NCBI GenBank assembly: GCA_964371625.1
Contig: CAYJMP010000001.1
Span: forward strand, 1,492,601-1,556,600
Direction: 5' to 3'
From: an uncultured Ignavibacteria bacterium
GTDB taxonomy: Bacteria > Zixibacteria > MSB-5A5 > WJJR01
Length of the DNA: 64,000 nt
Made by a program: the position numbers and the translations under genes. Below, piece by piece: positions 553-20,569 of the stretch; within the stretch, counting starts at the first letter, position 1; each line of letters begins with the position of its first letter. Under the pieces are notes generated by a model, which worked only from the letters and a program-made list of their open reading frames with translations, was not told where the DNA came from and ran no database searches.

Positions 553-574
553 GGGCGTTCTGGCACCGAAAAAT

Positions 575-640
575 GCAGGCTCGCGAGTACGCTCGCCCTC
601 CACATCCTGATTTGGAGGACGAGCGTACTCGCGAGCCTGC
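575..640. terminator. Long near-perfect inverted repeat (about 21-bp stem) between convergent genes; likely bidirectional terminator
   Basis: GCAGGCTCGCGAGTACGCTCG ... CGAGCGTACTCGCGAGCCTGC with an inner CCTCCA/TGGAGG pairing. On the minus strand the hairpin is followed by GCATTTTTCGG. It lies 6 nt after the stop of the 646..3432 gene. Confidence 0.45.
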
Positions 641-645
641 TCTTC

Positions 646-3432
646 TCAGCGGTACCCGAAGACTTCGGCCCAGATAATGAGAAGGATCAGCCCCAACCCA
701 AGCGAGAGCGCGATCCAGCCAAAGACTTTCATACCCTTGACCACCATAGGCGGCAGAGGCTCGGCCAAGTGCTTCTTGAGTTGACCGGTGCGAACCAACT
801 CCTCGAATTCCCGAGGCCGATCAAGGCGGAATTCCTGAATCGGCACGCGTCCCGTGAAGATGACCGTGTCCATCGGGAATTTGTCCGGACGGAAGTGTGT
901 ATTGAAAAAGTGTACGGTGAAGATGAAACCCACCGCCAATAGCGCTTCATCCGAGTGGATGATGGTCGCCACGTTGATGAACCACCCCGGCAGCAACTTT
1001 GTGAAGAATTCCGGGAACCACAACATCAGCCCGGTCGAGCCGATGATCAGCACGCCCCAGAAGACCGCGAAGTAGTCAAATTTCTCCCAGTACGTCCATC
1101 GCCCATAGCGCGGACGCGGCCCGGCGCCGACAAACCACTTGAGCGTTGCTTTCAAGTCCAGCCAGTCGTTTCGGTTCGGCAGCATCGAATCTTTGTCGAG
1201 CAGGAACTTGAACCACGACTTCCGGCTTTCTTTGCGCCGCTTCCAGACGTCGTGCAGATGCATCGCGAAGTACCCAAAAGTAATCACGGCACACACCCGA
1301 TGCACAAATGACGCCGCCTCAAATCCACCGAACATGCGTGAGAGGAACTGCGCCCAACCCAGGTATGAAAACTTGAGCGTCATCCCCGTCAATGCCAACC
1401 CGAGGAAGCTGATGACCACGAGAATGTGCATTTGCCGCTGACGGCGCGTGAACCGCTTGAACTCCAGTCGATGCGGTTTGGCTTCGATCTTCTGGTGCTG
1501 CCGCATCGCCTGGAACGATCGCGGCATCCACATCAGGGTATGCGTCCCTGCGAGAGTCAACGTGCCAATCAAGAGCGTGCTCATGAACCAAAACGTGTAG
1601 TACAGAATCGGGTACTTGTTCTTGTCGTGATGGGTCGCGTGCGTCAAGTATCCAGCAAAACGCCGGTTCGAGCCGGGGTGGCATTGCGCGCAAGTCTGCA
1701 CGATGTTGGCACGTGATAGGTGCGACGCGGGCTCACTGGGCGGGAGAATGTCGTGCGAGCCGTGGCAATCGTAGCACTTGGCGGCCATGGTGTATCCGAG
1801 CTTGGAGACTTTACCGTGGAACGTCTCGAAATACGACTCGGTCACATCCTTGTGGCACTCGCCGCATTGCGCCGTGATCGCCAGCTTGAACCCCTCGTCG
1901 CCGGTTCGTGTGATCGTGTGCGATGAGTGGCAGTCGATACAGACCGGGAGCTTTTTGTCGCTGGTCGAGACCGCCGTTGAGTGAATGCTCTTCGAGAACT
2001 TCTCAAAGATCCCATTGTGGCACCGCGCGCATGTTTCCGGGACGTTTGTGTGGTTGACGCTCGACTCGGGGTTGTCTTTCGGCAGGACATGATGCGCCGT
2101 GTGGCAATCGGTGCACATGGCGGTCACCACCAGGCCGCTCTCCAAGAGTCCCTTGCCGTGGATGCTCTCTGTGTAGTGCTCGATGATGTCGTGCTGCGTT
2201 CCTGTGTAGCGGACCGCGGCCTTCTTACCCTCTCGGTGGCATTGCGCGCAGAGCTTCGGAACATTGATTGGGAATGTCGCGGACTTCTGATCGCGTCGAT
2301 CCCGGATCCCATGATCGCCGTGGCAGTCTGTGCATGTCGGCGCATTCGGATCGCCGCGATCGACCAGTTGTCCGTGCGTGCTCGTCGCGTACACCGAATC
2401 GACACCGGCATGACACACGCCGCAATCGACACGCGCCGCTACCGTCGCGCAGGGACGCTCGTGTCCCTGGCGCGATGCCCCCGTGTGGCATTGGGCGCAG
2501 GCAACTTTGGATCGGTGATGTATCGACGGCCCGAACTCGGCTGAGTCAACAAACAGCGAGACCGTGTCGGCGCCCCTCACGGTCTGCAAATCCGGCCGGA
2601 CATGACAAGTCATGCATTCATCGTCGGAGATGCTCTCCTCGTACACCAGGCGGCGGGTCCGATGCGGTTCATGGCAATCTATACAGACCGGGATTTTGTG
2701 CGGTTCTTTCTCCCACAACTCACCGCGGATGACCTTGGAATGCACATCCTCGATACGCCCATGACACTTCTGGCAGGTGTTTGGAATATTGCTCGCATGG
2801 ATGCTTGAGGCCGGGTCGGTGTGCGGCAGCACATTGTGCGCCGTGTGGCAGTCGGTGCACACTGCGACGACTGTCAGTCCTTTCTTGTAAAGCCCCTCAC
2901 CATGCGCGCCAAATGAATAGTGCGAGAGAATCGAATCCTGAGGAATGTCGTACGTCTGATGAACTGGAGTTCCTTCCTTATGGCAACGCCCGCACATGAA
3001 CGGAATCTGGAACTTCGTGACTCGCGAATTCGGCGACGTCGGGCCCATGATGTCATGCGAACCGTGGCAATCCCAGCATCGCGGCGCCAGCGGGGCGCCA
3101 GAGTTAACCATCCGGCCGTGCATGCTATTGTTGTAGACTCCGGCGATATCATCATGACAGAGGCCACAATCGACCGGAGCGAGTGGAGCGTCATGGGGAA
3201 ATTCGGCGCCCGCCAGATCGCCGTGGCAGTCTATACACGTGAGTGAACCATGCACCGATGCCTGAAAGCCGGGGAGTAGGAGATTGACCCGCTGACCTGT
3301 TCGCTCTGAGACGAGCGACGGATCCTCATGGCACATCATGCAATCTTCGAGCGACTGCGCCAAGCTGGCTGGCGACATGCAAACCGCCAGTGTCAACACA
3401 CCCAGCGCCACAATCGACAGCCGACGACGCAC
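646..3432 (-). CDS. Giant multiheme c-type cytochrome (19 CXXCH) fused to a C-terminal multi-TM cytochrome b-like domain (CbcL-like architecture)
   Basis: Signal peptide MRRRLSIVALGVLTLAVCMSPASLAQS. The 19 CXXCH motifs are CMMCH, CIDCH, CGLCH, CWDCH, CGRCH, CTDCH, CQKCH, CIDCH, CMTCH, CAQCH, CGVCH, CTDCH, CAQCH, CTDCH, CARCH, CIDCH, CGECH, CYDCH and CAQCH. The C-terminal ~330 aa is hydrophobic with paired His in TM segments (HTLMWMP, MHILVV, HRVCAVITFGYFAMHLHD, IIHSD...FTVHFFNTHF), typical of Ni/Fe-hydrogenase-type diheme cytochrome b. The start overlaps the stop of the upstream gene by 1 nt. Confidence 0.8.
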   Translation of the reverse strand: MRRRLSIVALGVLTLAVCMSPASLAQSLEDCMMCHEDPSLVSERTGQRVNLLLPGFQASVHGSLTCIDCHGDLAGAEFPHDAPLAPVDCGLCHDDIAGVYNNSMHGRMVNSGAPLAPRCWDCHGSHDIMGPTSPNSRVTKFQIPFMCGRCHKEGTPVHQTYDIPQDSILSHYSFGAHGEGLYKKGLTVVAVCTDCHTAHNVLPHTDPASSIHASNIPNTCQKCHGRIEDVHSKVIRGELWEKEPHKIPVCIDCHEPHRTRRLVYEESISDDECMTCHVRPDLQTVRGADTVSLFVDSAEFGPSIHHRSKVACAQCHTGASRQGHERPCATVAARVDCGVCHAGVDSVYATSTHGQLVDRGDPNAPTCTDCHGDHGIRDRRDQKSATFPINVPKLCAQCHREGKKAAVRYTGTQHDIIEHYTESIHGKGLLESGLVVTAMCTDCHTAHHVLPKDNPESSVNHTNVPETCARCHNGIFEKFSKSIHSTAVSTSDKKLPVCIDCHSSHTITRTGDEGFKLAITAQCGECHKDVTESYFETFHGKVSKLGYTMAAKCYDCHGSHDILPPSEPASHLSRANIVQTCAQCHPGSNRRFAGYLTHATHHDKNKYPILYYTFWFMSTLLIGTLTLAGTHTLMWMPRSFQAMRQHQKIEAKPHRLEFKRFTRRQRQMHILVVISFLGLALTGMTLKFSYLGWAQFLSRMFGGFEAASFVHRVCAVITFGYFAMHLHDVWKRRKESRKSWFKFLLDKDSMLPNRNDWLDLKATLKWFVGAGPRPRYGRWTYWEKFDYFAVFWGVLIIGSTGLMLWFPEFFTKLLPGWFINVATIIHSDEALLAVGFIFTVHFFNTHFRPDKFPMDTVIFTGRVPIQEFRLDRPREFEELVRTGQLKKHLAEPLPPMVVKGMKVFGWIALSLGLGLILLIIWAEVFGYR

Positions 3433-5465
3433 TAATGATCTCCGCTCTGTTTGCCGCTCTTGCCGCTGCCGCCCTCGTCGCCTTCATTACTCGGAGTCCG
3501 CCGGTCGGAGAGGTGCTCGGCTTCGTTCGTCGAAGTGGGCGGCAATGCCGGATCGCCGGGATGTTCATGGCGATACACGTCCTCCGGCATCTTCCCCGTG
3601 TACCAGGAGGGATTCATCGGATAAACCGCCGGGCTGAACACGGTTGAATACATGTGCCAGATCAGAATGGCAAGAGTCGCCAGCCAGGCTTCGTAGTAGT
3701 GGATCACCAACATCACATCCAGGAAACCTTTGGGGAAAAACTTGACGGCCAATGACTCTTCCCACATGAAGAGACCCGTGATGGCCATGATTACTGTGCC
3801 CCAGACCAAGGCCCAGTACTCCGCCTTTTCCACGTAACTGAACCGGCCGAATGATGGACGGGAAGCGCTGCGGCCAAGATTGTAGTAAATCATCTGCTTG
3901 AATTCCGAGATATCCGATTTCCCGGGCATCATGTCGATGATGAATTGCCGACCGCGCGGGCGTAACAGGTACCCGACATGCCACATCGCCGTCAGAATGA
4001 AGAGAATGGCGGAGACACGGTGGATCGTGCCGCGAAGCGGGAAACCGCCCTCGCGCCCGAACAATAACTGCACCCACCACGCGTCCGAAAAACGCAGCGC
4101 GAATCCCGTGACTACGAGAACGATAAACGTGACCATGAGAAACGTGTGCTGCCAGACCTCATTGAACGTCATGCGGACAAACTGCTTCCTGAGGTTTACC
4201 AAATGAATCTGTTTGCGCAGATCGATGAGCCAATGCAGGACCATCCCGCCGATCACGACAAAGATGATGACGATGTAGATGTTCTTAATGATCCCGGCGA
4301 TCGGTGTCCGGCTCACTCCGGGCGATCCGTGGATTGGCGCTGTTGCCGCGGCGACGGAGATCCCCGGATGACAATGGCCGCAGGTCTTCTGCAGGTTGCC
4401 TTGATTGATCGAAGACGCCGAGTCGGTTGACGGAAGAATGCGATGGCCGCCGTGACACGAGGCGCAGTTCGCCACTGTCACGTCCCCGGTCTTGCTCTTC
4501 AGGCCATGATAGCTGTCGACAAAAGTCTTCAAACGGCCGGTGGGTATCCCGTATTTCTCATTCAGGCGGGCCGACTCATGACAAGGTGAACAAGTGGCCT
4601 CAGCCACACGGCTGGGGCTCACCGGGGATCGCGGATCCCGCAGCGGCAGAATGCCGTGCTCGCCATGGCAATTGGTGCATACCGGCGAGTCCGTCTCGCC
4701 GCGCTCGGTCAGCTGCCCGTGGATTCCCTCCCAATAGTCCTGCTCGACGTTGCGATGGCATTTTCCACAAGTCTTCGGGATGTTGAAGTGGTTGATCGAG
4801 GACTCAGTGTTCCCAGCGGGCAGTATCCGATGTGCTGTCCCCGCAGTCGAATGGCAATCATTGCAGGTCGCGGCAAGGTGCACGCCCGCAGTCGAGGCAC
4901 GGCCATGGACGCTGCTCTCGAACACTTCTATGGGCCGCTCGAGCGGAATCTTGTGTTTCTTGACCAGATCGAGATTCTCGTGACAGCTAGCGCAGGTGCG
5001 CGGGAGATTGATGGGATTGACCTTCGAGTGACGGTCCGTCGAGGGCAGGATATCATGCGTCCCGTGGCAATCAGCGCAGTTGGGAATATCCTCGCCGACA
5101 CCGACTCGCAGCCGCCCGTGCCATTGGTAAATCGAAGTCTCCTCCTCGTGGCACGACCCGCAGTTGACCTTCGCAAGCTTCTCGGCATGTGGGAAATCAG
5201 AGACGCCAGCGAGGTCAGCATGGCAGCTTGAGCACTCAAAGGTCGCGTGCGCGGATTGACCGACCTGTTCCGCGGTAACGACCAATGAGTCGGCACGTGG
5301 CCCATAGTCCTCAAACATGTCGCGCGTGCCGTGGCACTCAAGACACGTGCTGTTGTCGGCGACCGCGGTTGCGAAGGAACACAGGCTGAACGCGAGGACG
5401 ATTACCAGCCAGATAGCAATGGTCGACCTCGAACTCTGATAACGTGGTAGGACGGCGTTGGACAT
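3432..5465 (-). CDS. Multiheme c-type cytochrome (11 CXXCH) fused to a C-terminal cytochrome b-like membrane domain (second CbcL-like protein)
   Basis: The 11 CXXCH motifs are CLECH, CSSCH, CGSCH, CADCH, CASCH, CNDCH, CGKCH, CTNCH, CSPCH, CASCH and CGHCH. The C-terminus is multi-TM with conserved His (MVLHWLIDL, HTFLMVTF, HRVSAILFILTAMWHVGY, VIHYYEAW...IWHMY). I chose the start at MSNAVLPRYQSS (5465), preceded by GAGAGGGG; the ORF extends to 5525. Confidence 0.75.
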   Translation of the reverse strand: MSNAVLPRYQSSRSTIAIWLVIVLAFSLCSFATAVADNSTCLECHGTRDMFEDYGPRADSLVVTAEQVGQSAHATFECSSCHADLAGVSDFPHAEKLAKVNCGSCHEEETSIYQWHGRLRVGVGEDIPNCADCHGTHDILPSTDRHSKVNPINLPRTCASCHENLDLVKKHKIPLERPIEVFESSVHGRASTAGVHLAATCNDCHSTAGTAHRILPAGNTESSINHFNIPKTCGKCHRNVEQDYWEGIHGQLTERGETDSPVCTNCHGEHGILPLRDPRSPVSPSRVAEATCSPCHESARLNEKYGIPTGRLKTFVDSYHGLKSKTGDVTVANCASCHGGHRILPSTDSASSINQGNLQKTCGHCHPGISVAAATAPIHGSPGVSRTPIAGIIKNIYIVIIFVVIGGMVLHWLIDLRKQIHLVNLRKQFVRMTFNEVWQHTFLMVTFIVLVVTGFALRFSDAWWVQLLFGREGGFPLRGTIHRVSAILFILTAMWHVGYLLRPRGRQFIIDMMPGKSDISEFKQMIYYNLGRSASRPSFGRFSYVEKAEYWALVWGTVIMAITGLFMWEESLAVKFFPKGFLDVMLVIHYYEAWLATLAILIWHMYSTVFSPAVYPMNPSWYTGKMPEDVYRHEHPGDPALPPTSTNEAEHLSDRRTPSNEGDEGGSGKSGKQSGDH

Positions 5466-5539
5466 AGACCCCTCTCGCCTTCGGCTCGCCTGCGGCGCGC
5501 CTGCGGGGAGATCGTCCCCCCACACTCAAATCCTACGTA

Positions 5540-5585
5540 TCAATGTCCGGATTGTCAACGAACCCTCGCCAAGGAATGACAGAGA
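5540..5585 (-). promoter_or_regulatory. Sigma70-like promoter candidate upstream of the 11-heme fusion gene
   Basis: The minus strand reads CGTTGACAATCCGGA-N-TTGA...TAGGAT: TTGACA, a 17-nt spacer, then TAGGAT, about 80 nt upstream of the start. The 15-mer CGTTGACAATCCGGA is identical to the element at 7125..7170. Confidence 0.35.
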
Positions 5586-5632: not shown

Positions 5633-7054
5633 TCAACGTTTTGGCAGATCTTCCAGGACCGGAGTCGGATTCTCTTCCTCGTACGCCAACAACTGATGGC
5701 AGGCGCCGCAGTCCTGAGAAATGGTCAGACCCTCCGGCGAAACGTGATTCTCGTCGTGACAGCGGAAACACCCATTCGAGAATGTGTGCCCGATGAAATT
5801 GCGGTACGTCCCCCACACGATTCCCATTTCCGGGAAAATGTTGCGCGACCAGATGCCTGCGAGCACGTCCGCCGCCTGTTCTACCATTTCGCCCTTACTG
5901 CTCGCCAAATCCGGGTACTCAGTGCGATAATAAGTCCGCACTGCAACGCGGATGTCGCGGGCAGCGTCTTCGCGCGAGCCGTACGGCTGCTTCAGAATTC
6001 GGACTCCCTCCCGCTTGATAAACGGCAATTCGGCGGGCAGATCGCCCGTGACCAACGCTTCGTCGACGGCCACCTCGGGCACTTCAAAGGTGTGCGCCGG
6101 GCGATTGTGGCAGTCCATACAATCCATGACGCGACGCGGCATCGTCCGCAGTTCTTCGATAGGGTAAGGGGAATCGCTCGAGACGTACTCGGTCTGGCGT
6201 CCGTCAAGATCAGTCATTTTGATGTACGCAATGGTGTCACGGACTTCATCGAGAGCGACATACTCGACCTTGTTCTTGATGTTCATGTGCCAGTGAATAC
6301 CTGCGGTCCCGCCGAGTTTCGGGCTGCCTCCCCCGGTCTTCATCAGCAGGATGTTCTTGAGCGCCGTGTTGGCCGAGTCTTCCTGGTATCGCGTCTTCAC
6401 AACAAGCTTGAAGCTGTGAAACTTCTCCGGCCAATGACATTGCTCGCAGGTCTCTCGCGCCGGGCGCAGGTTGCGGACTGGCGAAGGGATGGGCTTTTCG
6501 TAGGTATCGAAGGTGACGGCGATCACCTGTCCCAAGCCCGACAGTTTGGATTTCACATACCAGTCCGCGCCCTCGCCAATGTGACACTCAACGCACGCGA
6601 CTCGCGCATGCGGGCCGTTCCGGTACGACGTGAGTTCCGGCTCCATAACCGAGTGGCATACCTCGCCGCAGAAGGTCGTCGTGTCCATGAAGACCACGCT
6701 CTCGTACGCGGTCGCCGCCATGAGCGAGACCACAAGCGCGGCGGTGATCGTCATCACGATGATTCGCCGACGGGTCCGCGTGTCATCGAGGTTGACTTCT
6801 ACACGAATCAGCCCCTTAGGCAATCCTGCCGCGTGGGCGAGCCGGCGTCGTTCCCAGCTCATCCCCACGGGAATCAATACAATGCCCAACAATATGAAGC
6901 CGGGAAGCACGAGAAAGGCGATGACGCCGATATATGGGTTCGATTCGAAACCCAGCCAGGCAGCCACAAGGATGAACAGTATGAACACCGCTGACACGCA
7001 AACGGTCAGCAGACCCGCGAAACTGATCCAGTTGCTTGTCAGTCGTTTAAGCAC
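5633..7054 (-). CDS. Membrane-anchored multiheme c-type cytochrome (6 heme motifs), possible NapC/NirT- or ImcH-like quinol-oxidising inner-membrane cytochrome
   Basis: Two N-terminal TM helices (FAGLLTVCVSAVFILFILVAAWLGF; IGVIAFLVLPGFILLGIVLIPV). Heme motifs are CGEVCH (CX3CH), CVECH, CEQCH, CMDCH, CFRCH and CGACH. The antisense ORF 5543..6994 is judged spurious. Confidence 0.6.
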   Translation of the reverse strand: MLKRLTSNWISFAGLLTVCVSAVFILFILVAAWLGFESNPYIGVIAFLVLPGFILLGIVLIPVGMSWERRRLAHAAGLPKGLIRVEVNLDDTRTRRRIIVMTITAALVVSLMAATAYESVVFMDTTTFCGEVCHSVMEPELTSYRNGPHARVACVECHIGEGADWYVKSKLSGLGQVIAVTFDTYEKPIPSPVRNLRPARETCEQCHWPEKFHSFKLVVKTRYQEDSANTALKNILLMKTGGGSPKLGGTAGIHWHMNIKNKVEYVALDEVRDTIAYIKMTDLDGRQTEYVSSDSPYPIEELRTMPRRVMDCMDCHNRPAHTFEVPEVAVDEALVTGDLPAELPFIKREGVRILKQPYGSREDAARDIRVAVRTYYRTEYPDLASSKGEMVEQAADVLAGIWSRNIFPEMGIVWGTYRNFIGHTFSNGCFRCHDENHVSPEGLTISQDCGACHQLLAYEEENPTPVLEDLPKR

Positions 7055-7124
7055 CTTACTCTCCCTTGCCCTTCATGCATGATGGCCAAGCCGGCCGAAC
7101 CATGTCAGAGGGCTCTAAACCTAT

Positions 7125-7170
7125 CCTCAATCATCCGGATTGTCAACGCCGTCAGTTCAATCACTGACAG
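7125..7170 (-). promoter_or_regulatory. Sigma70-like promoter candidate upstream of the 6-heme membrane cytochrome gene
   Basis: The minus strand reads GGCGTTGACAATCCGGATGATTGAGGATAGGTT: TTGACA, a 17-nt spacer, then TAGGTT, about 80 nt upstream of the start at 7054. Confidence 0.3.
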
Positions 7171-7244
7171 TCAACTGGCATATATGACAAAGCGGGCCGC
7201 CGAAAATCCGGCGGCCCGCTGCGACAGAAGAGTGGTCCGAATCG

Positions 7245-8306
7245 CTATTTCGCAGCCGACTGGGCCAGGTAGTCTAAACTCGCCGCGATGACATCCTCCG
7301 CATAGCGGGGATTGTGCACTCCATCACTCAGATCGTAATGCAAGAGCTTGTAATTCCACACCACGCCTCGATCATTGGCATTCAGTGGCGCGGCGGCACC
7401 TGTCCTGACCGAATCGCCGTTTTCACTCACCCAGCCACGAGCAAAGAGCGCATCACGGAGTTCATCGAGATGCTCATTAAAGGCGTCTTGAACGGCATTG
7501 ACATCGGTCCTCGCCATCTGATCCGCCGAGGATCCCGTCCAGTTTAGGTGGCAACCGGCCTCGCGGCAACCGCTCGAGTTAATTCTGGTGCCCGACGAGT
7601 AATTGATGGCAAAACTGTGGCCACCGGAGATCGCATTGTCCGGAAGATTCGCCATGTGGCAGGTCACGCAGCCGTTGGCGATGGCGTTGTGAGTGGCGTT
7701 GGTCCGATAAACTGCGCCGGGCAGCACCCAAGCGCCCTGCCCAGACAAGACATTTGACTGTGGGCCGTAATGTGTACCCCACCGGTAGCTGGTGATCAGT
7801 GTCGCTTCGTCATCTATCGCGGGCTCCGGGGCACGTGCCTGATGACAAACCGCGCATGTATTACTCTCAGCTTTGTCATAAGACGTACCCACAGTCATCG
7901 CTGTCGCCCCCTCCTTGCGTAGACCGAAATCCCCGAAAGTGTGAGGGGCGTGGCAAGCAAAACAGCCAATGTGAGACGACTCCTCCAACGGGGCGGACTC
8001 ACCCGTTGCGATGTAGGTCTGGTACCCTTCCGTACTGTGGCAGCGGGAGCATGCGGCGCTGCTCTCCGCGGTGCCCCGGACATATGTGTCGCTCAAGTTG
8101 TGCCGTGAGAGGGCAAACTGCGTTTGGATCGTCCGCAGATAGTACACCGAGTCGTCAACAAGTTCGTATTCGTCCGTGTGGCAATTCATACACGTTGCCA
8201 CCCCTGGCGGACCCTGCGGGCCCACGTCGCCCTCGCAACTGGCCAACCCCAAGAGCATCAGCCCGACAGCCAATGGCATGGCCGCCTTCAACCATTGTTT
8301 CATCCC
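7245..8306 (-). CDS. Multiheme c-type cytochrome lipoprotein (5 CXXCH plus one CX4CH), candidate outer-membrane/extracellular component
   Basis: Lipoprotein signal MKQWLKAAMPLAVGLMLLGLASC (lipobox LASC). Motifs are CMNCH, CSRCH, CFACH, CAVCH, CVTCH and CREAGCH. A short collagen-like GPQGPPG stretch follows the lipobox. The ORF extends to 8330; MKQW is the preferred start. Confidence 0.65.
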   Translation of the reverse strand, partial: GMKQWLKAAMPLAVGLMLLGLASCEGDVGPQGPPGVATCMNCHTDEYELVDDSVYYLRTIQTQFALSRHNLSDTYVRGTAESSAACSRCHSTEGYQTYIATGESAPLEESSHIGCFACHAPHTFGDFGLRKEGATAMTVGTSYDKAESNTCAVCHQARAPEPAIDDEATLITSYRWGTHYGPQSNVLSGQGAWVLPGAVYRTNATHNAIANGCVTCHMANLPDNAISGGHSFAINYSSGTRINSSGCREAGCHLNWTGSSADQMARTDVNAVQDAFNEHLDELRDALFARGWVSENGDSVRTGAAAPLNANDRGVVWNYKLLHYDLSDGVHNPRYAEDVIAASLDYLAQSAAK

Positions 8307-8351
8307 GCGCTCCTTTCGATCACTATTCAAAATCCTCGTCTTTCATGACCA

Positions 8352-9470
8352 TCATTCCGGATCCCGTCCGTGACAACGCTCGCAGAAACCGACGCCTGGC
8401 CGACGCGCCCCGCCCTCGTGACAGACATAGCAAACAGCGTTTTCATCGTCGTGCCATGAGCCCTTAACATCGCGCATGAATCCCTCGGGATGTGGCGAGA
8501 TGGTGTTGCGATGGCATCGCAGGCATGTCGGCTCGGCAGCACTCTCTTCGTGGCAGGCCGCGCAAACCTCAATATCGGTGCGCGCAAACTCGGCGTGCCT
8601 GTGGTATTCGAAATCGGCCAAGTCATGCCACACTGGCTTCAGCCGCGAACCATCATTCTCGGGGTTATGGCAGGCATTGCAGAATGTCTGCGGTTCGTGG
8701 CAAACTGCGCAGTCCAAGGTCTTCGCGCGCACGTCACTACCGTGCGTCCAACGGTAGTTCAGATCATGCGCCCGCTGCAGAATCAAAAGGTCGTTTCCCT
8801 CATGGGCTGAAGCCATCGGACCAATTCGATCGACCGGCGCGTCCGCCTTATTCAAGATCGCCAGTCCCAGCGCCGCCCCTTCGTGGCACTCCGAGCAGTA
8901 ACTCTCACGATGACATGTCTCGCACGATTTGGCGTCGCCCCGCGCCTTGATTGAGTGATCCGACACCCAGTCGGCCACGTGATCCTTGGGGCGGAGCAAC
9001 TGTACCTGCGAATGGCACACGTTGCAGTTGTCGTTCATCTCACGTTCGCCGTGGCAATCAGTGCAAATCGACATCGACGGCAGGGCATGACTCGGAGCCT
9101 TCGTCGATTTCTCGACCCCTGCATGACAGCTCGCGCATTCCATCCCCATCGACACGTGCTTGGCGTGGTCGAAGATGAGTTCACGCGCCGGTGTCGGCCA
9201 CGGCGATGAGCCATCGGCCGGGACCGTCCAGTTCATGTCGGCTTGCTCGTGACAGCCGTAGCAGTCTGCAAGAGTGGGCAGCAGTATCGTCACCGAGGTC
9301 GTGGCAGAACTGGCCGCTTTGTGGCAATCGAGGCAGGCGGCGCCAACGTCTTCAATATGCTTTTTATGATCGAAGGGGATCGTGGGAGTCTTCGTGCCCG
9401 AGGCGTATGCCGAAAAGAAGATTGCTCCCGCCGCCATCACCAAACCCACTATGGTTGCGCGCCGCTTCAT
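8352..9470 (-). CDS. Periplasmic multiheme c-type cytochrome (13 CXXCH), MtrA/OmaB-like candidate
   Basis: Signal peptide MKRRATIVGLVMAAGAIFFSAYASG. The 13 motifs are CLDCH, CYGCH, CASCH, CTDCH, CNVCH, CETCH, CSECH, CAVCH, CNACH, CAACH, CLRCH, CYVCH and CERCH. The ATG overlaps the stop of the upstream beta-barrel gene (ATGA-type coupling at 9470). Confidence 0.75.
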   Translation of the reverse strand: MKRRATIVGLVMAAGAIFFSAYASGTKTPTIPFDHKKHIEDVGAACLDCHKAASSATTSVTILLPTLADCYGCHEQADMNWTVPADGSSPWPTPARELIFDHAKHVSMGMECASCHAGVEKSTKAPSHALPSMSICTDCHGEREMNDNCNVCHSQVQLLRPKDHVADWVSDHSIKARGDAKSCETCHRESYCSECHEGAALGLAILNKADAPVDRIGPMASAHEGNDLLILQRAHDLNYRWTHGSDVRAKTLDCAVCHEPQTFCNACHNPENDGSRLKPVWHDLADFEYHRHAEFARTDIEVCAACHEESAAEPTCLRCHRNTISPHPEGFMRDVKGSWHDDENAVCYVCHEGGARRPGVGFCERCHGRDPE

Positions 9471-10771
9471 TATTGCCCACCCCCCTCGGTCGATCCCTGC
9501 CCACCCAAGCGGTTGAAGAACCACCAGGAGAATCGCGCGATCACGCGGAAATCCGATTCGTCTCCGGCGAACGACGCCATGGTCTTCAGGTCTTGAGTCA
9601 GATATTGCAGCTCCAGATCCCACGATGCTTGCGGCATCCACTGCCACCGCACCCCGGCCCACGCCGAGGCTTCGGTATTGGATTCTTCCTGATCCTCGAA
9701 GAGTTCGTAAGTCGAATAGTGCGAGCCGCCGCGCAATGTCCAGCGTGGGTTGAGCGGATACATGGCTTCCCCGGACAACGACACGGTCGATCCGGAGGCT
9801 CCCGCCTTGGTGTGGAGCATGAGTGAGAAATACTTGTGTGAGGCCCCGAGATCAAAACGTTGGGCACTTTCATCAGCGATGTCCACCAAGGCCCCGCCGA
9901 CTGTCAATGTCCAGGTCTCGTTCACGCGGTAGTGCAGTCGCAATCGTCCTTCGCGGAACTCGGTATCACCAAACACCCAAAAGATCGAATTGTAAGCGAG
10001 GCCGGGACGACGATAGCGAAATTGCCCTTGCACGCTGAGCTTCGAAGTCGCATCCCAGCGCGCCGAAATATGCGCCCGCTGGATCCGTGAGCGCGGTTGA
10101 TCATAGAGGAGATTTCCATAGAGAGAACCGAACGCCGGGAACGACCTGCGCCAATCGAGTCCGAAATTACGGGACGCGAGATCATCCACCTCCGTCGACC
10201 CATAACTGCGCTGAATTCGGCGCTCGGCAAAGGTCAGAAACATGGTTCCCATCATCGGGCATCGTCTGCCGACTCGTAGACCGAACGCATGCCCCTCATC
10301 GAAATCTCTCGGCTTGAATCGTCCGTCTTCCGGAGCGAGTGATCCGATGTATCCGCCAAGCTCAAATTCTTTCCAGAAGCGCAAATCGGCAGAGCCGCCG
10401 TCAATAGCTAACGAGCCATTCGGCCAACTCATCCGGTGGCGTCCAACAGTCAGATCGAGGACGTTCGCCAGCTTCTTCCAGCGCGCATAGAGGTCGTAGA
10501 CACGGTAATCGTCGACATTGTCTCCCTGACTGCGCGAGTCCAAACGGCCGCGCATGGTCGTCGCGATTTCCAAGTCCTGGCCGCCGATCCGGCCGAGACG
10601 CAAGCCCAATGTCCCGGAGTTCTGCCAATGCCGTGTGTCGGTGCTGTCGAGCTCACTGCGCTCCCACAAATAGCTGGAAACACCGACTCGACCCGTGAGC
10701 ACAGCCGCGTTGGCTGATATCGAAATCCCGAGGAGAATGACCAGAGCAAGACTAACAGGTATACGGTTCAT
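9470..10771 (-). CDS. Predicted outer-membrane beta-barrel protein, candidate porin of a porin-cytochrome conduit
   Basis: Signal peptide MNRIPVSLALVILLGISISANA, then ~410 aa rich in alternating aromatic/Gly beta-strand-like segments (YRVYDLYARW, FGLRVG, LYGNLLYD, WTLTVGGALV, RVIARFSWWFF). It is first in the operon, immediately upstream of and coupled to the 13-heme cytochrome. No homology search was possible; the call rests on position and composition. Confidence 0.45.
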   Translation of the reverse strand: MNRIPVSLALVILLGISISANAAVLTGRVGVSSYLWERSELDSTDTRHWQNSGTLGLRLGRIGGQDLEIATTMRGRLDSRSQGDNVDDYRVYDLYARWKKLANVLDLTVGRHRMSWPNGSLAIDGGSADLRFWKEFELGGYIGSLAPEDGRFKPRDFDEGHAFGLRVGRRCPMMGTMFLTFAERRIQRSYGSTEVDDLASRNFGLDWRRSFPAFGSLYGNLLYDQPRSRIQRAHISARWDATSKLSVQGQFRYRRPGLAYNSIFWVFGDTEFREGRLRLHYRVNETWTLTVGGALVDIADESAQRFDLGASHKYFSLMLHTKAGASGSTVSLSGEAMYPLNPRWTLRGGSHYSTYELFEDQEESNTEASAWAGVRWQWMPQASWDLELQYLTQDLKTMASFAGDESDFRVIARFSWWFFNRLGGQGSTEGGGQ

Positions 10772-11202
10772 CGGGCTCCCCCACGATTTGACGACCCTTC
10801 CATCCACCGATAGTATCGGCGGGTCATTTCGATCCGAGAACCATGACCGCGATCACGGTACATTTGTTGACATCCGCTGGCAAGGAAGAACGCCACAAAC
10901 GTCAACTGTTTTTGACAACATAAGCCGAAAGATTGCCGTGCGCTGGGCCCCTACGAGGCGAGTGGCCACTCACTTGCGCGTGCCCCTAAATACGACAGAC
11001 TAAGTAGTATTTGCAACATCGGACTCACGACGCCCCGCATCGGCATCTCGAGAAAGCCGGCTGACCAATGCTCAGCGGCACGAGGACAATCCGCACATCT
11101 TAGTCCATGTGACTCAACAAATTCGCCGCCGCGCCGATACTGAATAATGGACCTCAGGCGCCCCGGGCGCAGTCCCCGTTACGCCTGAATCGAGCGAGCG
11201 TC

Positions 11203-12747
11203 ATGACACTTACTGACACCGGACACATCGTCTTGAAAGCCGTCGAAGTCTTCGGCGGTCTGCCCGATGACATCCTCGACGTGATTCGTTCCTACATGGA
11301 AGAGCGCACGACTCCGGCGGGAATGGTGCTGTTCGAAGAAGGCCAGAAGGCCGAGGATGTCTTCTTCCTCCGCAAGGGCACGGTCCAAATCATCAAGACG
11401 CAGGATGGGAGGGCCGAGGTCTTGGCGCGTCGCGGACGGGGTGAGGTCATTGGCGAGATGGCGCTCTTAGACGCCTCACCACGGTTTGCCACCGCCATCT
11501 GTGAAACCGAGTGCGACCTGTTCGTCCTCTCACGCAGTCGTTTCTATGATCTCCTCCCCCAGCATCCGAGCATAGCGGAACGCATCATGCGAGTCATGAG
11601 TCAGCGTGTGCGCGAAGCCGATGTCAAACGCCTTGAGGGACTGGAAGCCAAGACACGTGAGTTGGAAGCGGCACGGTCGCGGCTGGAAGCTTCTTTGACA
11701 TACCGCGATCGCGTTCTCGCGAACGCGCCATATCCGATTATCGTCACCGACGTCGTCAATCGGGTCCAACTTGCCAACAACGCTGCGCAGCGTACATTCG
11801 GCAATCCGAAGAAGCGCATCCTGTGGGAATGGATCATTCCGAAAAACCCCGATCTCAAAGCCGAATTGGAATCACGGCTCCAACGCTCCTCCAGCTGGAA
11901 GACCGAGCTGGAATTGACGGGCCCCGAAGACGCGCAACTGTTCTGCAAACTCGTGGTGGTACCCATTGCCGACACCGGGGATGGCCGGTCGGCGCGTTTA
12001 TGGATCTTCGAGGACCTGACGGAGATTCGCGCGCTGCAATCCCGGGCGCTGGACCGCGAGCGGCTGGCGCTCAAAGGCGAAATGGCCGGTGAAATCGCCC
12101 ACGAACTCAACAACTACCTCGCGGTGCTGTTGGGAAATGTTGAACTCCTCCCCATGTTCCTGGGGAATTCACTGCCGCCGGCCGCGCAAAAGTCGCTGAG
12201 CAGCATTCAACACGCCCTCGGGCAAGTCACGCTATTCACCGACAGCCTGTTGCGCTCGCGCCATCCCGCAGGACAACTCACAGAAATCAACTTGAATGAG
12301 TTCCTTGAAAATCAGATCGCCTTTCTGCGTCCGCAAAAGCGGCTAAAGAAAGCTGTGATCGAAACGCGTTGGGGCGAGAATATCCCGGCGTTCGAATGCG
12401 ATGCTTCGGGACTTCAACAAGTCTTCTACAATCTCCTCCTGAATGCTGCGGACTCTCTGGCCGCTGCGGGCCCGGACTGCCATTCCATTTTCGTCACCAC
12501 GAACTTCGACAACGCCACCCATCACGTTGAGTTGATCGTCGAAGACAATGGGCCCGGCATCCCGCCGGAAGTGCAATCGCGGATGTTCAGAGAGCGTATC
12601 TCAACCAAACCGACCGGGCATGGCTTCGGCTTAATGACCATTGCACGGATCATCCAGGAACACGGTGGCACGATTACGCCCGGTTCGCGTGAAGGCGGCG
12701 GCGCCCGATTCATTATTCGTCTTCCGCTTAAACCAGCCCACTCTTAA
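11203..12747 (+). CDS. Sensor histidine kinase with N-terminal cyclic-nucleotide-binding (CAP/Crp-type cNMP) domain
   Basis: The N-terminus (LFEEGQKAEDVFFLRKGTVQII...GRGEVIGEMALLDASPRFATAICETECDLFVL) matches the cNMP-binding beta-roll signature (GE..ALL....R.A.A). A coiled-coil follows. The HisKA box is EMAGEIAHELNNYLAVLLGNVELL. The HATPase_c region is IVEDNGPGIP...GHGFGLMTIARIIQEHGGTI. Confidence 0.8.
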   Translation: MTLTDTGHIVLKAVEVFGGLPDDILDVIRSYMEERTTPAGMVLFEEGQKAEDVFFLRKGTVQIIKTQDGRAEVLARRGRGEVIGEMALLDASPRFATAICETECDLFVLSRSRFYDLLPQHPSIAERIMRVMSQRVREADVKRLEGLEAKTRELEAARSRLEASLTYRDRVLANAPYPIIVTDVVNRVQLANNAAQRTFGNPKKRILWEWIIPKNPDLKAELESRLQRSSSWKTELELTGPEDAQLFCKLVVVPIADTGDGRSARLWIFEDLTEIRALQSRALDRERLALKGEMAGEIAHELNNYLAVLLGNVELLPMFLGNSLPPAAQKSLSSIQHALGQVTLFTDSLLRSRHPAGQLTEINLNEFLENQIAFLRPQKRLKKAVIETRWGENIPAFECDASGLQQVFYNLLLNAADSLAAAGPDCHSIFVTTNFDNATHHVELIVEDNGPGIPPEVQSRMFRERISTKPTGHGFGLMTIARIIQEHGGTITPGSREGGGARFIIRLPLKPAHS

Positions 12748-12762
12748 GAGGATGATGGCCAC

Positions 12763-13107
12763 ATGGACCTGATGTGGTTCCTCTTTCTCGCGCATCTGAC
12801 CGGGGACTATGCGCTCCAGTCTGACCGCATGGCGGCAGAAAAGGGTCGCAGACTGTCGCAACTGACTCGGCATGTGGTGATCTATACACTCTGTATTGGC
12901 GCCACGTTGTGGCTCTACGCTGCGGCAACTTCACAGTTCAAATTCTATTCCTGGCACGCGGCCGGAATGCTGGCCCCACTTCTGGCGTTGCACTGGATTC
13001 AGGATTACATCAAGGGCCACTACCTCGCCCACAGCAAGCAAGCGTACTACGCCGACCAAGTCTTGCACTTGGCCCAACTGTACATCATCCGGCTGCTTCT
13101 GATATGA
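12763..13107 (+). CDS. Small hydrophobic membrane protein (DUF3307-like), translationally coupled to the downstream cyclase
   Basis: 114 aa with 3-4 predicted TM segments (MDLMWFLFLAHLTGDYALQ..., VVIYTLCIGATLWLYAAA, LAPLLALHWIQDYI). Its stop TGA at 13105..13107 overlaps the ATG at 13104 of the next gene. Confidence 0.4.
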   Translation: MDLMWFLFLAHLTGDYALQSDRMAAEKGRRLSQLTRHVVIYTLCIGATLWLYAAATSQFKFYSWHAAGMLAPLLALHWIQDYIKGHYLAHSKQAYYADQVLHLAQLYIIRLLLI

Positions 13108-16100
13108 CCGAATCGGGGAGACCAGACGAAGCGGTCGTGGCGCTGGTCTCGCGCCGACTCTGGACTACTCAACAGAGCCGCGAGTCCCGCATCTGCAACG
13201 GCTCAGTCCTTTTCGCCGACATTGCGGGGTTCACCCACCTGACCGAGACCGCGAAGCTGCGCGCCGGTACTCGCGGCATCGAGGAACTGACCGCCCGCAT
13301 CAATGCCGTCTTTGATGACTTGGTCGTGGCGGCGCACTCAACCGGCGGCGACATCCTGAAATTCGGAGGGGACGCGATCCTCGTCGCCTTCGATGCCAAT
13401 GGCGATGATCAAGATGCCGTCGCCCGCGCGATTCGCTGCGCCGGACGGATGCAAACAGCAATCGCGCGCCATCGTCGCGCCACGCTGCGATCACTTTCGC
13501 TGCATCTCGGCATTGCTCAAGGGCCGTGGTGGGAATATGTGGCGGGAATCACGGGCGCAAGGCGTGAGCACTTTGTCTGGGGAGAAACCATCGCACGGGC
13601 CATGGATGCCGCGGACTCTGTCAGTCGTAACGTGCGCATTGACTGCCCTGCCCGCCTTCTGCCACGCGATGGCGTGAGTCGATTCGATCGAGTCGGCGCT
13701 CACCAATTCGACCTCAAATCGTCCGCCCCGGGAATCGCCTCCATCTCCCGGCACGTCTTTGAAACTCCGAATGATACCCAAGCGATCTGGGATTTCGTAC
13801 CCGAGGTCCTCCGCGATCCCGACCGAATTGCGGCGTTCGACGCCGCCCATTCCGCCGAGCATCGGCGTGTCTCAACGGTCTTCGCGTTTTGGAAGTGTCC
13901 GCAGGGCATGAAAAATCCTGTTCAGAGCGCGGAGCTATTCAATTCCGTTTTCCAATGCGCCCATGCCGCATCTTCTTCCGAGAACGGCGTGTGGGCTCGC
14001 AGTGATCCCTCCGGTGACAAGCAGAAGATTCTGGTTCTCTTTGGAGCAACGCAAAGCTCGACGGACGATGTGAATCGCGCGGTGTCGTTTGCCAATACCC
14101 TGCGGGATGACTTTGCCAAACTGCGAAAGAAGTTTCCGTCTCTCAAGCTGGGAATCGGTGTCGCCACGGCGACTGTGTTTACCGGATTTGTCGGCAACAA
14201 GGAGCGTCGCGAGTTTACCGCGATGGGGGACGGTGTCAACCTTGCGGCCCGCCTAGCCGCAAAAGCGAAAAACGGCAGCATTCTCGTGGACGCAACGACG
14301 CGAGACGAGTCGACGCGTTATCAATTCCGGCCCGCGGGAGTGTTGGCGCTCAAGAATGTCCGCAAGCCAACGGCCGTGTTTCGGCCTGCCGGAGTGATCT
14401 CGGTCGATGCCAGGAAGACGGCAGACCATATTGTCGAGCACCCGACGGCCCTGCGTCGTTGTCTGATGCTTTGGGAGGATGGGGCACACAGTGTCCATAT
14501 TGCCGTCGAGCCCGGCACCGATGCGCGCAAATTCCTCGCTCAGCTGACTTCACGCTTGCGCGATTTTGGCAGCAACCACCTCGCAGTGACATTTGACCCG
14601 GGTGATGCCTCGCGTCCACTGGCAGGCCTTCGGCGGTTGTGCGCGATCTTGTTGCCGAGCGCGAACGATCCCCTGGCTGAATTGCTGGAGGATTCGGAAA
14701 GACACGTGCCTCGCATGCTTGCCCGTCTTGGGTTGGAAGCGGCAGCCAATGAGATCGCGCGACTAGTACTGCGACAGGTGGCACCGGCGAGCCCTATCGT
14801 TTTGGATCACGTCGAATTCCTCGAAGGATTGGATCGCAAAGCCATCGAAACGCTCATCGAGAAGGCGCCAAACCGATGGCTGGTCATCGAGTTTCAGGAC
14901 GAGCCGCACACGTCTTCGCCAAGTGGTGCAGAGGTTGTTACGCTTGGCGCATTGACGCGCGACGAATTGACACGGGTCATCGGCGACATTTTGGAACCGG
15001 CCCGTCCATCACGATCCTTGATTGACTTCTTGTACGAACGCTCTCATGGGACCGTCCGCCTGGCGCGGTCTTTTCTCTCGCATCTCATTTCCGCGGGCGC
15101 CGTCACCCGTTCGGGGGGGCACCGCGCCGTCTGGCAGTTGCGCGATCCAGACAGTGTGAACATCCCCGATGGTCTGCGCGCGCATTTCCTCCAGCATGTG
15201 GACCGGCTTCCCCATCCTGAACGAATGGTCCTCCGGGCCGTGACCCTCCTCAATGATTCGGCACCGTTTCAGGCAATTGCCCGCCTGTGCAATGATCTCG
15301 ACGAGGCGAAGATTGCAGCCTGCCTGGAAAAGTTGAAAGAGCATGGTCTGATTGAACTGCACAGTGGCGACCGGGAATTGCGTGCATCTGTCTGTGATCT
15401 GACCTGTCGTCAGGCTGTATACGAGACAATGTCATACCGCCTGCGCGAAGCATGGCACCAAGAGGCGGCGTCCTTCTGGCGCGCCGTGACGCGACCCGAC
15501 CCTGCTCGCATTGGGGAGCATCTATTTCGCGCGCGCCGGGTTGAATCGGCCAAGTGGCTGTCTCAGGCGGCGACACGGGCTCAGCGATTGTGGTCGCTGG
15601 ACCGCGCACGCCAATTCAGCCGATGGGCAATTCTCGCCGCACAAGGCAATTGTAAGGTCGATTATGCATCAGTTATTCCCCCTCTCTCCAAGCACCCGGC
15701 GCATACGGAAGTGACACTTTTTGATTCTCTCGCCGAGATCTTTCGATTGCAGGGGCTTCATGTTGAAGCAGGGCGCATCCACCGCTGGCTGGCGCGGATC
15801 GCCAAGGGCTCAAAGAACCTCCGGCTGTCCTGTCATCATCGCCTGGTCGCGGCGCGCATGGATTGGTACAGCGGTCATTACGAGAAATCCGGTCGACAGG
15901 CTCTATCTGTTTTGCGGCAATCACGGCGCCTGAAAGATCAGACTTTGACGGCAGAGTCGGCCTATCTCTTCGGTGAGACGTGCCGACGCACCGGTCGAGT
16001 CAATGCGTCCCTGCGAGCCCTCACCGAAGCCGAGGCGCTCCTTCGGGATTCGGACAAACGAGATGTTTATGCTGATGTGCTCAATGCCCTTGGGCTTCTG

Positions 16101-17093: not shown

Positions 17094-17544
17094 AGCAGTG
17101 CCAGAGTATGACGCTGGCCATCACAAGAAACCCGCACACCATGAGAACGGAGCTTGGATAAATGACCCAAGCCGCCCACCGCTCCCCGATCGCGATCAGC
17201 CAAAGTGAGCCGAAGGTCGACAGCAGGGAAAGTAAAGTCTCTGTGGCCCAAAGGCTCTTCCATCTTGCCAACACGTCAGTGAACGCAAAGAGCACCGCCA
17301 CTGCAAAGAACAGCATGCCCATCCCCAGAAGATGGGTGTGCACAATCTCGAGCATCTCCCCCGTCGACTTTCCGAACTTCAGTTCTTCTTCATTGCCTTG
17401 GTAGTGATCTGAGATTCCTTCGGATCGCATCCCCGTGTTGTGCGCGATGAACGCGAGGCCCGCGGCGTACCCCAAAAGACTCACGAGGATGAACACTGCG
17501 ATCGGCATGCGCAGGTATGACGGCAGCGTTCGGAGTCGCACCAT
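17065..17544 (-). CDS. Small 4-TM membrane protein with conserved intramembrane His (possible heme-b/electron-transfer membrane partner of the flavinylated protein)
   Basis: MVRLRTLPSYLRMPIAVFILVSLLGYAAGLAFIAHNTG...LEIVHTHLLGMGMLFFAVAVLF...SLLSTFGSLWLIAIGERWAAWVIY...VLMVCGFLVMASVILWHCF. The start M (MVRLRT) overlaps the stop of the upstream FMN-binding gene; the alternative start 17559 (MGEPI) is possible. Confidence 0.4.
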   Translation of the reverse strand: MVRLRTLPSYLRMPIAVFILVSLLGYAAGLAFIAHNTGMRSEGISDHYQGNEEELKFGKSTGEMLEIVHTHLLGMGMLFFAVAVLFAFTDVLARWKSLWATETLLSLLSTFGSLWLIAIGERWAAWVIYPSSVLMVCGFLVMASVILWHCFTPEARPGN

Positions 17545-19210: not shown

Positions 19211-19216
19211 CGTCGC

Positions 19217-20380: not shown

Positions 20381-20555
20381 GAAACCCTCCAAAAGGTGAC
20401 GCAGCGTCGACGCTGCAACAAGACACACCACAGTCATCCCCACTCAAGATGATTGCAGACATGTGAACGGAGAATAGCTCTCGTAGGTCAGGGGCCCGCT
20501 CTCCGAAGGCCCTGAGCGAAGTCGAAAGGGTTGGGCCCTGACTTGCCGCTGTGAG

Positions 20556-20569
20556 TTAGGCGCACCTAA
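20556..20569. promoter_or_regulatory. Palindrome TTAGGCGCACCTAA (TTAGG-N4-CCTAA), candidate metalloregulator operator upstream of the beta-barrel/ApbE operon
   Basis: Perfect inverted pentamers TTAGG/CCTAA, the same half-sites as DtxR/IdeR iron boxes but with shorter spacing. It lies about 175 nt upstream of the operon start. Confidence 0.3.

Follow-up and report, generated by a model that had tools for sequence, protein, structure and literature searches.

Adjacent 19-heme and 11-heme cytochrome bc fusions in a Zixibacteria operon: probable menaquinol-oxidising paralogues of the CbcL/MtrH/MtoC family

CbcL of Geobacter (GSU0274) carries nine low-spin c hemes with bis-histidine ligation and oxidises menaquinol for low-potential extracellular acceptors, passing the electrons to PpcA (PMC9129911). 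Its membrane part is a six-helix, HydC/FdnI-like diheme cytochrome b domain (PMC6295460). Joshi et al. (bioRxiv 10.1101/2022.08.31.506072) described quinol oxidation by CbcL with release of the protons to the cytoplasm and a lower growth yield. Zhong and Shi (2018, PMC6295460) compiled homologues of CbcL, MtrH and MtoC from 15 phyla, with identities of at least about 29% to G. sulfurreducens CbcL, R. ferrireducens MtrH or MtoC. The homologues have 416–1034 amino acids, 3–23 CX2CH motifs, conserved histidines and mostly six transmembrane (TM) helices, a few having five or four. Many entries of their Table S2 are 19-heme proteins of 913–951 amino acids, and 11-heme proteins with an 8+3 layout are listed as well. 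In the genome RBG-1, Castelle et al. (2013, PMC3903129) reported an 'Mtr pathway' cluster that encodes multiheme cytochromes of the inner membrane. Here we analyse two adjacent genes, termed A and B, of an uncultured Ignavibacteria bacterium (GTDB lineage Bacteria; Zixibacteria; MSB-5A5; WJJR01). They lie in a stretch of 64,000 nucleotides, referred to below as the window, which comprises positions 1,492,601 to 1,556,600 of contig CAYJMP010000001.1 (assembly GCA_964371625.1).

A and B are probably old paralogues of the CbcL/MtrH/MtoC type, that is, menaquinol-oxidising inner-membrane bc cytochromes feeding an extracellular electron transfer route encoded in their own operon. The genes and the predicted export signal of A are located as follows.

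646–3432, minus strand: gene A, GTG start, encoding a 928-amino acid fusion of a 19-heme cytochrome c and a diheme cytochrome b, an A-type CbcL/MtrH/MtoC homologue
3432–5465, minus strand: gene B, encoding a 677-amino acid fusion of an 11-heme cytochrome c and a diheme cytochrome b, B-type, with five TM helices and an acidic cytoplasmic tail
3358–3432, minus strand: signal peptide of A, residues 1–25, MRRRLSIVALGVLTLAVCMSPASLA with putative cleavage before Q (hydropathy peak at residues 7–25, basic n-region)

The sequence-only reading that preceded this work had described two adjacent fusions with 19 and 11 hemes at 646–5465, and this description is right in every detail, both in the open reading frames and in the motif counts. 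The motif scan finds 19 CXXCH motifs in A and 11 in B, and none of the variant heme motifs CX3-4CH or CXXCK in either protein. B starts at the ATG at 5465, which is preceded at a distance of 5 nt by the Shine-Dalgarno-like GAGAGGGG; the mechanical open reading frame reaches further, to 5525. At the junction of the two genes, GGAGATCATTAGTGCGT, one G is common to the TAG stop of B and the GTG start of A (TAGTG), and GGAG stands about 7 nt upstream of this start. Since identical proteins of 928 and 677 amino acids have already been called on the NCBI contig, the gene models do not depend on the calling of open reading frames used here. Both proteins have a signal-peptide-like hydrophobic segment at the N-terminus and TM helices at the C-terminus, where the following domains are found.

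649–1614, minus strand: cytochrome b domain of A, with linker helix TM0, four-helix FdnI-like core and a sixth C-terminal helix; ligands H669, H711, H826 and H841
3630–4304, minus strand: cytochrome b domain of B, with TM0 and four-helix FdnI-like core; ligands H440, H482, H589 and H604

According to hydropathy and the AlphaFold2 (AF2) models, A has six TM helices and B five. In the models the helices of A span residues 608–650, 663–687, 704–736, 780–805, 816–846 and 895–925, with a predicted local distance difference test score (pLDDT) of 75–87, and those of B span 388–425, 434–458, 477–500, 544–568 and 581–609 (pLDDT 75–93). Through TM0, an additional helix, the chain leaves the periplasmic heme domain and reaches the cytoplasmic side, where the FdnI-like bundle begins. 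In place of the sixth helix, B has a hydrophilic acidic tail, as do all B-type relatives, hence the count of five. The paired histidines in successive helices that had been noticed from the letters are borne out by conservation: H669, H711/H725 and H826/H841 in A, H440, H482/H496 and H589/H604 in B.

The heme b ligands of E. coli FdnI, which we take to be H18, H57, H155 and H169 in the numbering of Jormakka et al. (2002), agree with a profile alignment built from 28 A-type and B-type b domains. When this profile was searched against the PDB, FdnI (1kqf_C) was the sole real match (E 3.2e-14, FdnI residues 2–214); the b domain of A alone gave no PDB match at E up to 10 with phmmer, so that the 28-domain profile was needed to reach FdnI. 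The four ligand columns hold an invariant histidine in 28 of the 28 b domains: H18 corresponds to H669 of A and H440 of B, H57 to H711 and H482, H155 to H826 and H589, and H169 to H841 and H604. Foldseek also places 1kqf_C first for both AF2 models, with a template-modelling score of 0.70 for A and 0.72 for B (root-mean-square deviation 3.8 Å for B), and the cytochrome b of E. coli hydrogenase-1 is next among heme b proteins. B scores 43.9 bits against the Ni_hydr_CYTB model of Pfam (PF01292), above the cut-off of 30.1. The formate dehydrogenase gamma model of NCBIfam (TIGR01583) matches both proteins with 30 and 58 bits (E 1.2e-15 for B), below its cut-off of 115.85. The conserved bis-histidine pairs, with all four FdnI ligands aligned in A and in B, speak for a real diheme b domain; the earlier proposal of a CbcL-type fusion of multiheme c and FdnI/HydC-type diheme b modules is thus supported.

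FdnI and the cytochrome b of hydrogenase-1 share with A and B the four-helix fold, the four histidine ligands and two stacked b hemes. However, FdnI is a subunit of its own, which is supplied with electrons by FdnGH and reduces menaquinone, whereas in A and B the b domain is fused to a multiheme c domain via the extra helix. A role as gamma subunit of a formate dehydrogenase or hydrogenase is ruled out for A and B by the gene context and this fusion, and no gene for a Mo/FeS or NiFe catalytic subunit occurs in the operon or its flanks. Two further cytoplasm-side histidines are conserved, H631 and H725 in A and H411 and H496 in B, for which FdnI has no counterpart. H631/H411, near the end of TM0, is present in at least 90% of the 28 diverse sequences and invariant inside each orthologue set; H725/H496, 14 residues past the TM2′ ligand, is replaced by Q or N in 3 of the 28. 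These residues may form part of the quinol site or be ligands of a third heme.

The periplasmic parts are made up of the following units, which for A are delimited by the heme spacing.

2671–3342, minus strand: heme module 1 of A, hemes 1–8, residues 31–254, 40% identical to module 2
1927–2616, minus strand: heme module 2 of A, hemes 9–16, residues 273–502, internal duplicate of module 1
1678–1866, minus strand: membrane-proximal triheme unit of A, hemes 17–19, residues 523–585
4368–5345, minus strand: heme domain of B, residues 41–366, one 8-heme module plus three hemes

All 19 motifs of A are invariant in 46 homologues and all 11 motifs of B in 60, so they do not occur by chance. The periplasmic part of A contains 21 additional invariant histidines outside the motifs, which is sufficient for bis-histidine ligation of each heme. 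Residues 25–266 and 267–512 of A align with 40% identity at a score of 501, compared to 40.5 ± 7.6 for shuffled sequences, and each of these modules is 35–36% identical to the single module of B. Because of these identities, A is a B-like architecture with a tandem duplication of the 8-heme module, from 8+3 to 8+8+3. Residues 264–895 of A align with residues 31–658 of B (30% identity, E 3e-94), in line with the paralogous architecture suggested earlier. The N-terminal part of B also aligns with residues 2–351 of A; the single B module matches both halves of the duplicated region. The paralogy is old, since the b domains of the A and B types are only 24–29% identical and a separate set of orthologues is found across phyla for either type.

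The triheme unit of A has the spacing 25/30/28, which is that of the MtoC/MtrH-type entries in Table S2 of PMC6295460, and the last four hemes of B are spaced in a CbcL-like manner (29/42/28 vs. 28/43/28). Pfam reports c7, c3 and paired-CXXCH matches on A, those to Cytochrome_C7 being generic. The modules of both proteins weakly resemble NrfB, DmsE/MtrA and c7 domains, under the cut-off of every one of these families. The local likeness to the DmsE family (E 1e-26) amounts for A to 94 bits against TIGR03508, the cut-off being 192.2, which rules out membership of A among the MtrA/DmsE decahemes; NrfB (2ozy) is matched at E 3e-6. Unlike the membrane-anchored fusions, MtrA/DmsE and NrfB are soluble or porin-inserted. 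Membership in the c7-polymer 'nanowire' family (TIGR04257, GSU1996-like) was likewise considered and rejected, with 35.1 bits for A and 32.5 for B against a cut-off of 40. Among solved structures, chain A of PDB entry 28pb ('Cytochrome c', 278 amino acids; profile E 2.8e-10) is the one most closely related to the first five hemes of the module. It aligns to residues 28–154 of A (2971–3351 of the window) with the same heme order and spacing; its N-terminal 110 or so residues align well to the A module, and it has no b domain. This recently deposited structure could serve as a template for modelling the 8-heme module. The AF2 heme domains of A and B are of low confidence (pLDDT about 35–80, predicted template-modelling score 0.45–0.51).

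How do A and B compare with the described family? Both combine a periplasmic multiheme domain whose CX2CH count (19 and 11) falls within the family range of 3–23, a C-terminal HydC/FdnI-like b domain recognised by the profile, Foldseek and PF01292, by the last in A just under the cut-off, and conserved TM histidines for the b hemes. The 19-heme layouts in Table S2, together with the identity of its b domain to proteins of CbcL-like and MtoC-like spacing, are indirect evidence that A is homologous in sequence to the named members of the CbcL/MtrH/MtoC family. The b domain of A is 43–48% identical (E 1e-72 to 1e-82) to 9-heme proteins of 615–640 amino acids whose heme spacing is CbcL-like; with one protein of MtoC-like spacing it shares 38% identity. 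The exact heme spacing of GSU0274 was not found among the representatives at 50% identity, which gave near matches only. CbcL is built like A and B: a signal peptide is followed by a periplasmic multiheme c domain, which a linker TM helix connects to a diheme b domain of the FdnI/HydC type, and there is no FeS, flavin or Mo partner. It differs in size: CbcL has 9 hemes, 619 amino acids and 6 TM helices, compared to 19 hemes in A, and 11 hemes and 5 TM helices in B (PMC6295460).

The closest tabulated counterpart of A is PLX25239.1 of Salinivirgaceae (928 amino acids), with hemes at residues 29, 66, 89, 119, 147, 192, 220, 250, 273, 310 ... 578 and TM helices from 612 (PMC6295460). A has its hemes at 31, 66, 89, 119, 147, 192, 220, 250, 273, 312 ... 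581 and TM helices from 608, a near residue-for-residue match by which the two proteins belong to one subfamily. The 8+3 layout of B recurs in the 11-heme entries, e.g., Oter_2603 of Opitutus terrae (729 amino acids); the listed 11-heme proteins, however, have the sixth TM helix that B lacks. A-type and B-type proteins of Zixibacteria are absent from Table S2. A literature search on '19 heme' CbcL-like proteins gave nothing relevant past Zhong and Shi.

Homologues of A were searched among 5.8 billion protein clusters; 4770 proteins matched with an E value of 1e-10 or lower. The best 120 of these have 895–990 amino acids and are 58–88% identical to A; nearly all named ones among them come from Zixibacteria metagenome-assembled genomes, including the founding genome RBG-1. 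Nineteen motifs are present in 108 of these 120, 18 in four (895–899 amino acids, read as N-terminal truncations) and 20–21 in eight. For B, 120 homologues were found among the matches listed, with 62–100% identity, one of which carries the submitter name '11 hemes c containing cytochrome'. A scan with one genome per species detected relatives of A in at least 598 species genomes, 598 of the 600 stretches listed encoding one. The best 80 of these relatives are full-length and 47–64% identical, and they belong to Ignavibacteria, Zixibacteria, Acidobacteriota, Krumholzibacteriia, Eisenbacteria, Gemmatimonadota, Planctomycetota, Calditrichota, Bacteroidota, Omnitrophota, Latescibacterota, KSB1, Hydrogenedentota, Woeseiaceae and others. 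With an E threshold of 1e-30, an exhaustive HMMER search with the b domain of A returned 398 representatives of clusters at 50% identity. Of these, 67 apparently complete ones have 5 to 22 hemes, with modes at 9 and 11. Within the subfamily the heme counts cluster at 11 and 19 (8n+3, whole-module duplication), with a minority at 13, 16, 17, 21 and 22–23.

These data do not support the view, expressed from the sequence alone, that the two fusions are unusually large or exceptional. Nineteen hemes lie at the high end of the family range, yet this is a standard, conserved and common catalogued form, and the architectures of both A and B were on record in 2018 (PMC6295460).

A and B are the last two of six co-oriented genes on the minus strand, in the order F-E-D-C-B-A. 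The other members and the control signals are the following.

5633–7054, minus strand: gene C, ImcH-like inner-membrane cytochrome with three N-terminal TM helices, five CXXCH and one CX3CH motifs and a NapC/NirT/NrfH-like region
7245–8330, minus strand: gene D, lipoprotein multiheme cytochrome with lipobox LGLASC, five CXXCH motifs and CX4CH, resembling MtrC/MtrF domains II/IV
8352–9470, minus strand: gene E, periplasmic 13-heme cytochrome, ATG at 9470 with a 1-nt overlap with the TAA of F
9470–10807, minus strand: gene F, candidate outer-membrane beta-barrel (porin), first gene of the operon, with weak MtrB/PioB-like matches below cut-off
562–645, minus strand: intrinsic terminator, a perfect hairpin of about 30 bp followed by a U-run directly after the A stop, from RNA folding
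5530–5558, minus strand: sigma-70-like promoter TTGACA-17-TAGGAT, the best match in the region (10/12), a consensus match only

Gene C has the features of ImcH, namely three N-terminal TM helices, six heme motifs (the range being 6–10) and matches to NapC/NirT and NrfH. It is 50% identical to G0778 of RBG-1, an ImcH homologue in Table S3 of PMC6295460. D scores 30.0 bits against PF22113, equal to the cut-off. The mechanical start of E at 9662 is too far upstream; because of the 1-nt overlap with F, the real start is the ATG at 9470 (MKRRATIVGL...). This F/E overlap (TAATG, 9468–9472, minus strand) is of the same type as the TAGTG between B and A. The terminator hairpin folds at −64.5 kcal/mol (z = −10.9), and no shuffled sequence folds equally well; a consensus terminator scan missed it, the stem being too long for the pattern, and it was found by reading and folding. 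The F/E and B/A overlaps, the common orientation of the six genes and the strong terminator after A indicate that F–A is a six-gene operon, an extracellular electron transfer cluster typical of Zixibacteria. The spacer of 167 nt between C and B holds the promoter match along with the Shine-Dalgarno-like element of B, so B–A may also be transcribed separately, from this candidate internal promoter. The genes for CbcL, ImcH and the outer-membrane conduit are found at separate loci in Geobacter, unlike here, where A and B share an operon with the ImcH-like gene and the conduit.

The RBG-1 genome contains orthologues of A (RBG1_1C00001G0777, 926 amino acids, 64% identity), of C (G0778) and of B (a 647-amino acid gene product, 63% identity in the b domain), which likewise share a single cluster of respiratory cytochromes, together with genes for a porin and a decaheme-like cytochrome. 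There, however, the ImcH-like gene is followed by the A orthologue, and the B orthologue converges on the other strand, compared to the single-strand order of the window. The RBG-1 cluster (5634–22781 of the extracted locus) is larger and differently ordered, being flanked by PetAB (Rieske/cytochrome b), an NrfD/4Fe-4S pair, two monoheme cytochromes and MtrB_PioB with an MtrA-like gene. In a sample of 45 loci with at least 5 kb on each side of the 19-heme gene, an ImcH-like gene occurs in 14 and F-, E- or D-like genes in 8, and F/E-like pairs stand beside A-type genes in several phyla. In some genomes of Calditrichota, KSB1 and Melioribacter (loci L058, L076, L066 and L071), an open reading frame for a heme-free, stand-alone b domain of about 230–290 amino acids lies immediately upstream of the fusion gene; this might reflect a split of the fusion or a duplication of the b subunit.

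Most likely, by analogy with the described systems, A and B function as menaquinol:periplasmic-cytochrome oxidoreductases. In the scheme that we infer for the position and membrane side of the quinol site, the direction in which electrons flow, the partner proteins and the tuning of potentials, the signal peptide would export the all-bis-histidine c domain (19 or 11 hemes) to the periplasm, and TM0 would cross the membrane into the FdnI/HydC-type four-helix bundle with two b hemes stacked across the membrane. Menaquinol would be oxidised at the cytoplasm-side heme b, as judged from FdnI and Geobacter CbcL. Electrons would then pass to the periplasm-side heme b, the membrane-proximal c heme and the chain of c hemes, and finally to periplasmic or outer-membrane partners. 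The operon itself offers candidates for these partners in the 13-heme cytochrome E, the porin F and the lipoprotein cytochrome D, and C would be a third, ImcH-like quinol dehydrogenase. The protons of the quinol would be released to the cytoplasm, making this a low-yield route. C, B and A are probably parallel entry points tuned to acceptors of different potential or to different energy yields, comparable to ImcH, CbcL and CbcBA in Geobacter. The gene content suggests such parallel couplers, maybe with different potential windows.

Several points weigh against this assignment. The Ni_hydr_CYTB score of A, 29.3 bits, is slightly under the gathering cut-off of 30.1. B has five TM helices instead of the six that are usual in the family; the family description in PMC6295460 allows five. 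The extra conserved histidine pair (TM0, TM2′+14) is unexplained by the two-heme model of FdnI. Experimental function is known for CbcL only. Finally, the direction of electron flow is not readable from sequence, and relatives of the MtoC type occur in Fe(II) oxidisers.

This last point leads to the alternative that survives best, according to which A and B would be quinone reductases taking electrons from Fe(II) or another extracellular donor through the outer-membrane conduit, as proposed for MtoC. The last three hemes of A do have the MtoC/MtrH-type spacing of 25/30/28, and Zhong and Shi (PMC6295460) did not find any sequence feature by which oxidising and reducing members could be told apart. 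Furthermore, Fe(II) oxidation was the interpretation that Castelle et al. (PMC3903129) preferred for the orthologous cluster of RBG-1. Two features of the operon speak for the opposite direction, but neither is decisive: it contains an ImcH-like gene, and Zhong and Shi found ImcH homologues in Fe(III) reducers only (PMC6295460); it also encodes, in D, a lipoprotein with an MtrC/MtrF-like domain, a candidate for the extracellular reductase that was said to be lacking in RBG-1 (PMC3903129). On balance, electron entry through A and B seems rather unlikely.

Compared to menaquinol oxidation with electron delivery to the encoded partners, a more daring proposal, the strong version of the nanowire-like conduit suggested from the sequence alone, is that the 19-heme domain of A is rigid and extended, crosses the periplasm and docks on the outer-membrane porin-cytochrome complex, so that soluble shuttles would be needless. 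The 19 bis-histidine hemes in three tandem units are compatible with this, and length could matter in a protein that is unusually conserved across phyla (47–64% identity in the best 80) and keeps 19 hemes in 108 of its 120 best homologues. MtrA spans about 8 nm with 10 hemes and GSU1996 about 12 nm with 12 hemes; extrapolation from these lengths would give about 15–19 nm for the fully extended chain of A. However, the low-confidence AF2 heme domains yield no geometry, and A stays under the cut-offs of the c7 'nanowire_3heme' and DmsE/MtrA models. Moreover, the same operon has the 11-heme paralogue and a 13-heme periplasmic cytochrome, and the family is continuous from 5 to 23 hemes, so no particular length seems to be required. 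Geobacter CbcL, for its part, hands its electrons to the soluble PpcA (PMC9129911). We therefore regard the periplasm-crossing wire as unlikely. Equally doubtful is its extended form, in which the heme count would grow by whole 8-heme modules (8+3, 8+8+3), a rigid wire of about 15–19 nm would join the quinone pool to the outer-membrane complex, and the extra histidines would maybe provide a third b heme or a quinol gate. If true, it would mean a hard-wired circuit from the inner to the outer membrane in many uncultured phyla, replacing the soluble shuttles of the Geobacter and Shewanella style.

It was also considered whether A and B are obligate partners, i.e., a co-translated hetero-oligomeric complex and not independent oxidoreductases. 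The 1-nt stop/start overlap with GGAG upstream would fit, and the 45 sampled loci show that the pairing recurs: a second c/b fusion with 11, 13 or 17 hemes is found in 20 of them and is directly adjacent in 15, in many phyla. On the other hand, the orientation of this adjacent gene varies (upstream on the same strand, as in the window, in six loci, downstream on the same strand in three and on the opposite strand in six), as does its heme count, and 25 of the 45 loci have no second fusion within 10 kb. In RBG-1 the two genes are convergent. The pairing is thus recurrent but not fixed, which argues against an obligate co-translated complex and makes it improbable. The overlap itself, from which co-translation had been read, is real (TAGTG), whereas co-translation as a functional requirement is weak. 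The remaining alternative, that cytochrome c and b genes were artificially joined by a frameshift or that A and B are ordinary gamma subunits of formate dehydrogenase or hydrogenase, finds an echo in the automatic Joint Genome Institute names of homologues ('cytochrome b subunit of formate dehydrogenase') but can be dismissed, as full-length versions of the fused architecture are conserved in hundreds of metagenome clusters as well as in at least 598 species genomes, the 19 motifs of A recur in 108 of its 120 best homologues, the operon lacks FdnGH or hydrogenase genes, and NCBI called the identical proteins independently.

The surroundings of the operon contain further genes. On the plus strand, divergent from it, are a histidine kinase with cyclic nucleotide (cNMP)-binding and PAS domains (11203–12747) and a 1394-amino acid adenylate/guanylate cyclase with TPR repeats (12909–17093); this pair is a possible cyclic-nucleotide control module for the operon. 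Nearby on the minus strand are an ApbE flavin transferase (18131–19210), an unannotated membrane-like protein of 408 amino acids (19217–20443) and a DtxR-type iron-dependent repressor (20596–21096). Very large open reading frames are found elsewhere in the window at 46509–52649 (minus strand, 2046 amino acids), 54514–57936 (minus strand, 1140 amino acids) and 28117–31140 (plus strand, 1007 amino acids).

The locus represents a compact and complete candidate circuit for extracellular electron transfer in a terminator-bounded operon. In this one operon, three couplers to the quinol pool (ImcH-like, 11-heme bc and 19-heme bc) are combined with a porin-cytochrome conduit, which should help to annotate iron and electrode respiration in metagenomes. 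Proteins of the 19-heme form are widespread and highly conserved, but none of them has so far been purified or structurally solved. A structure of this form would reveal the periplasmic reach of an inner-membrane cytochrome.

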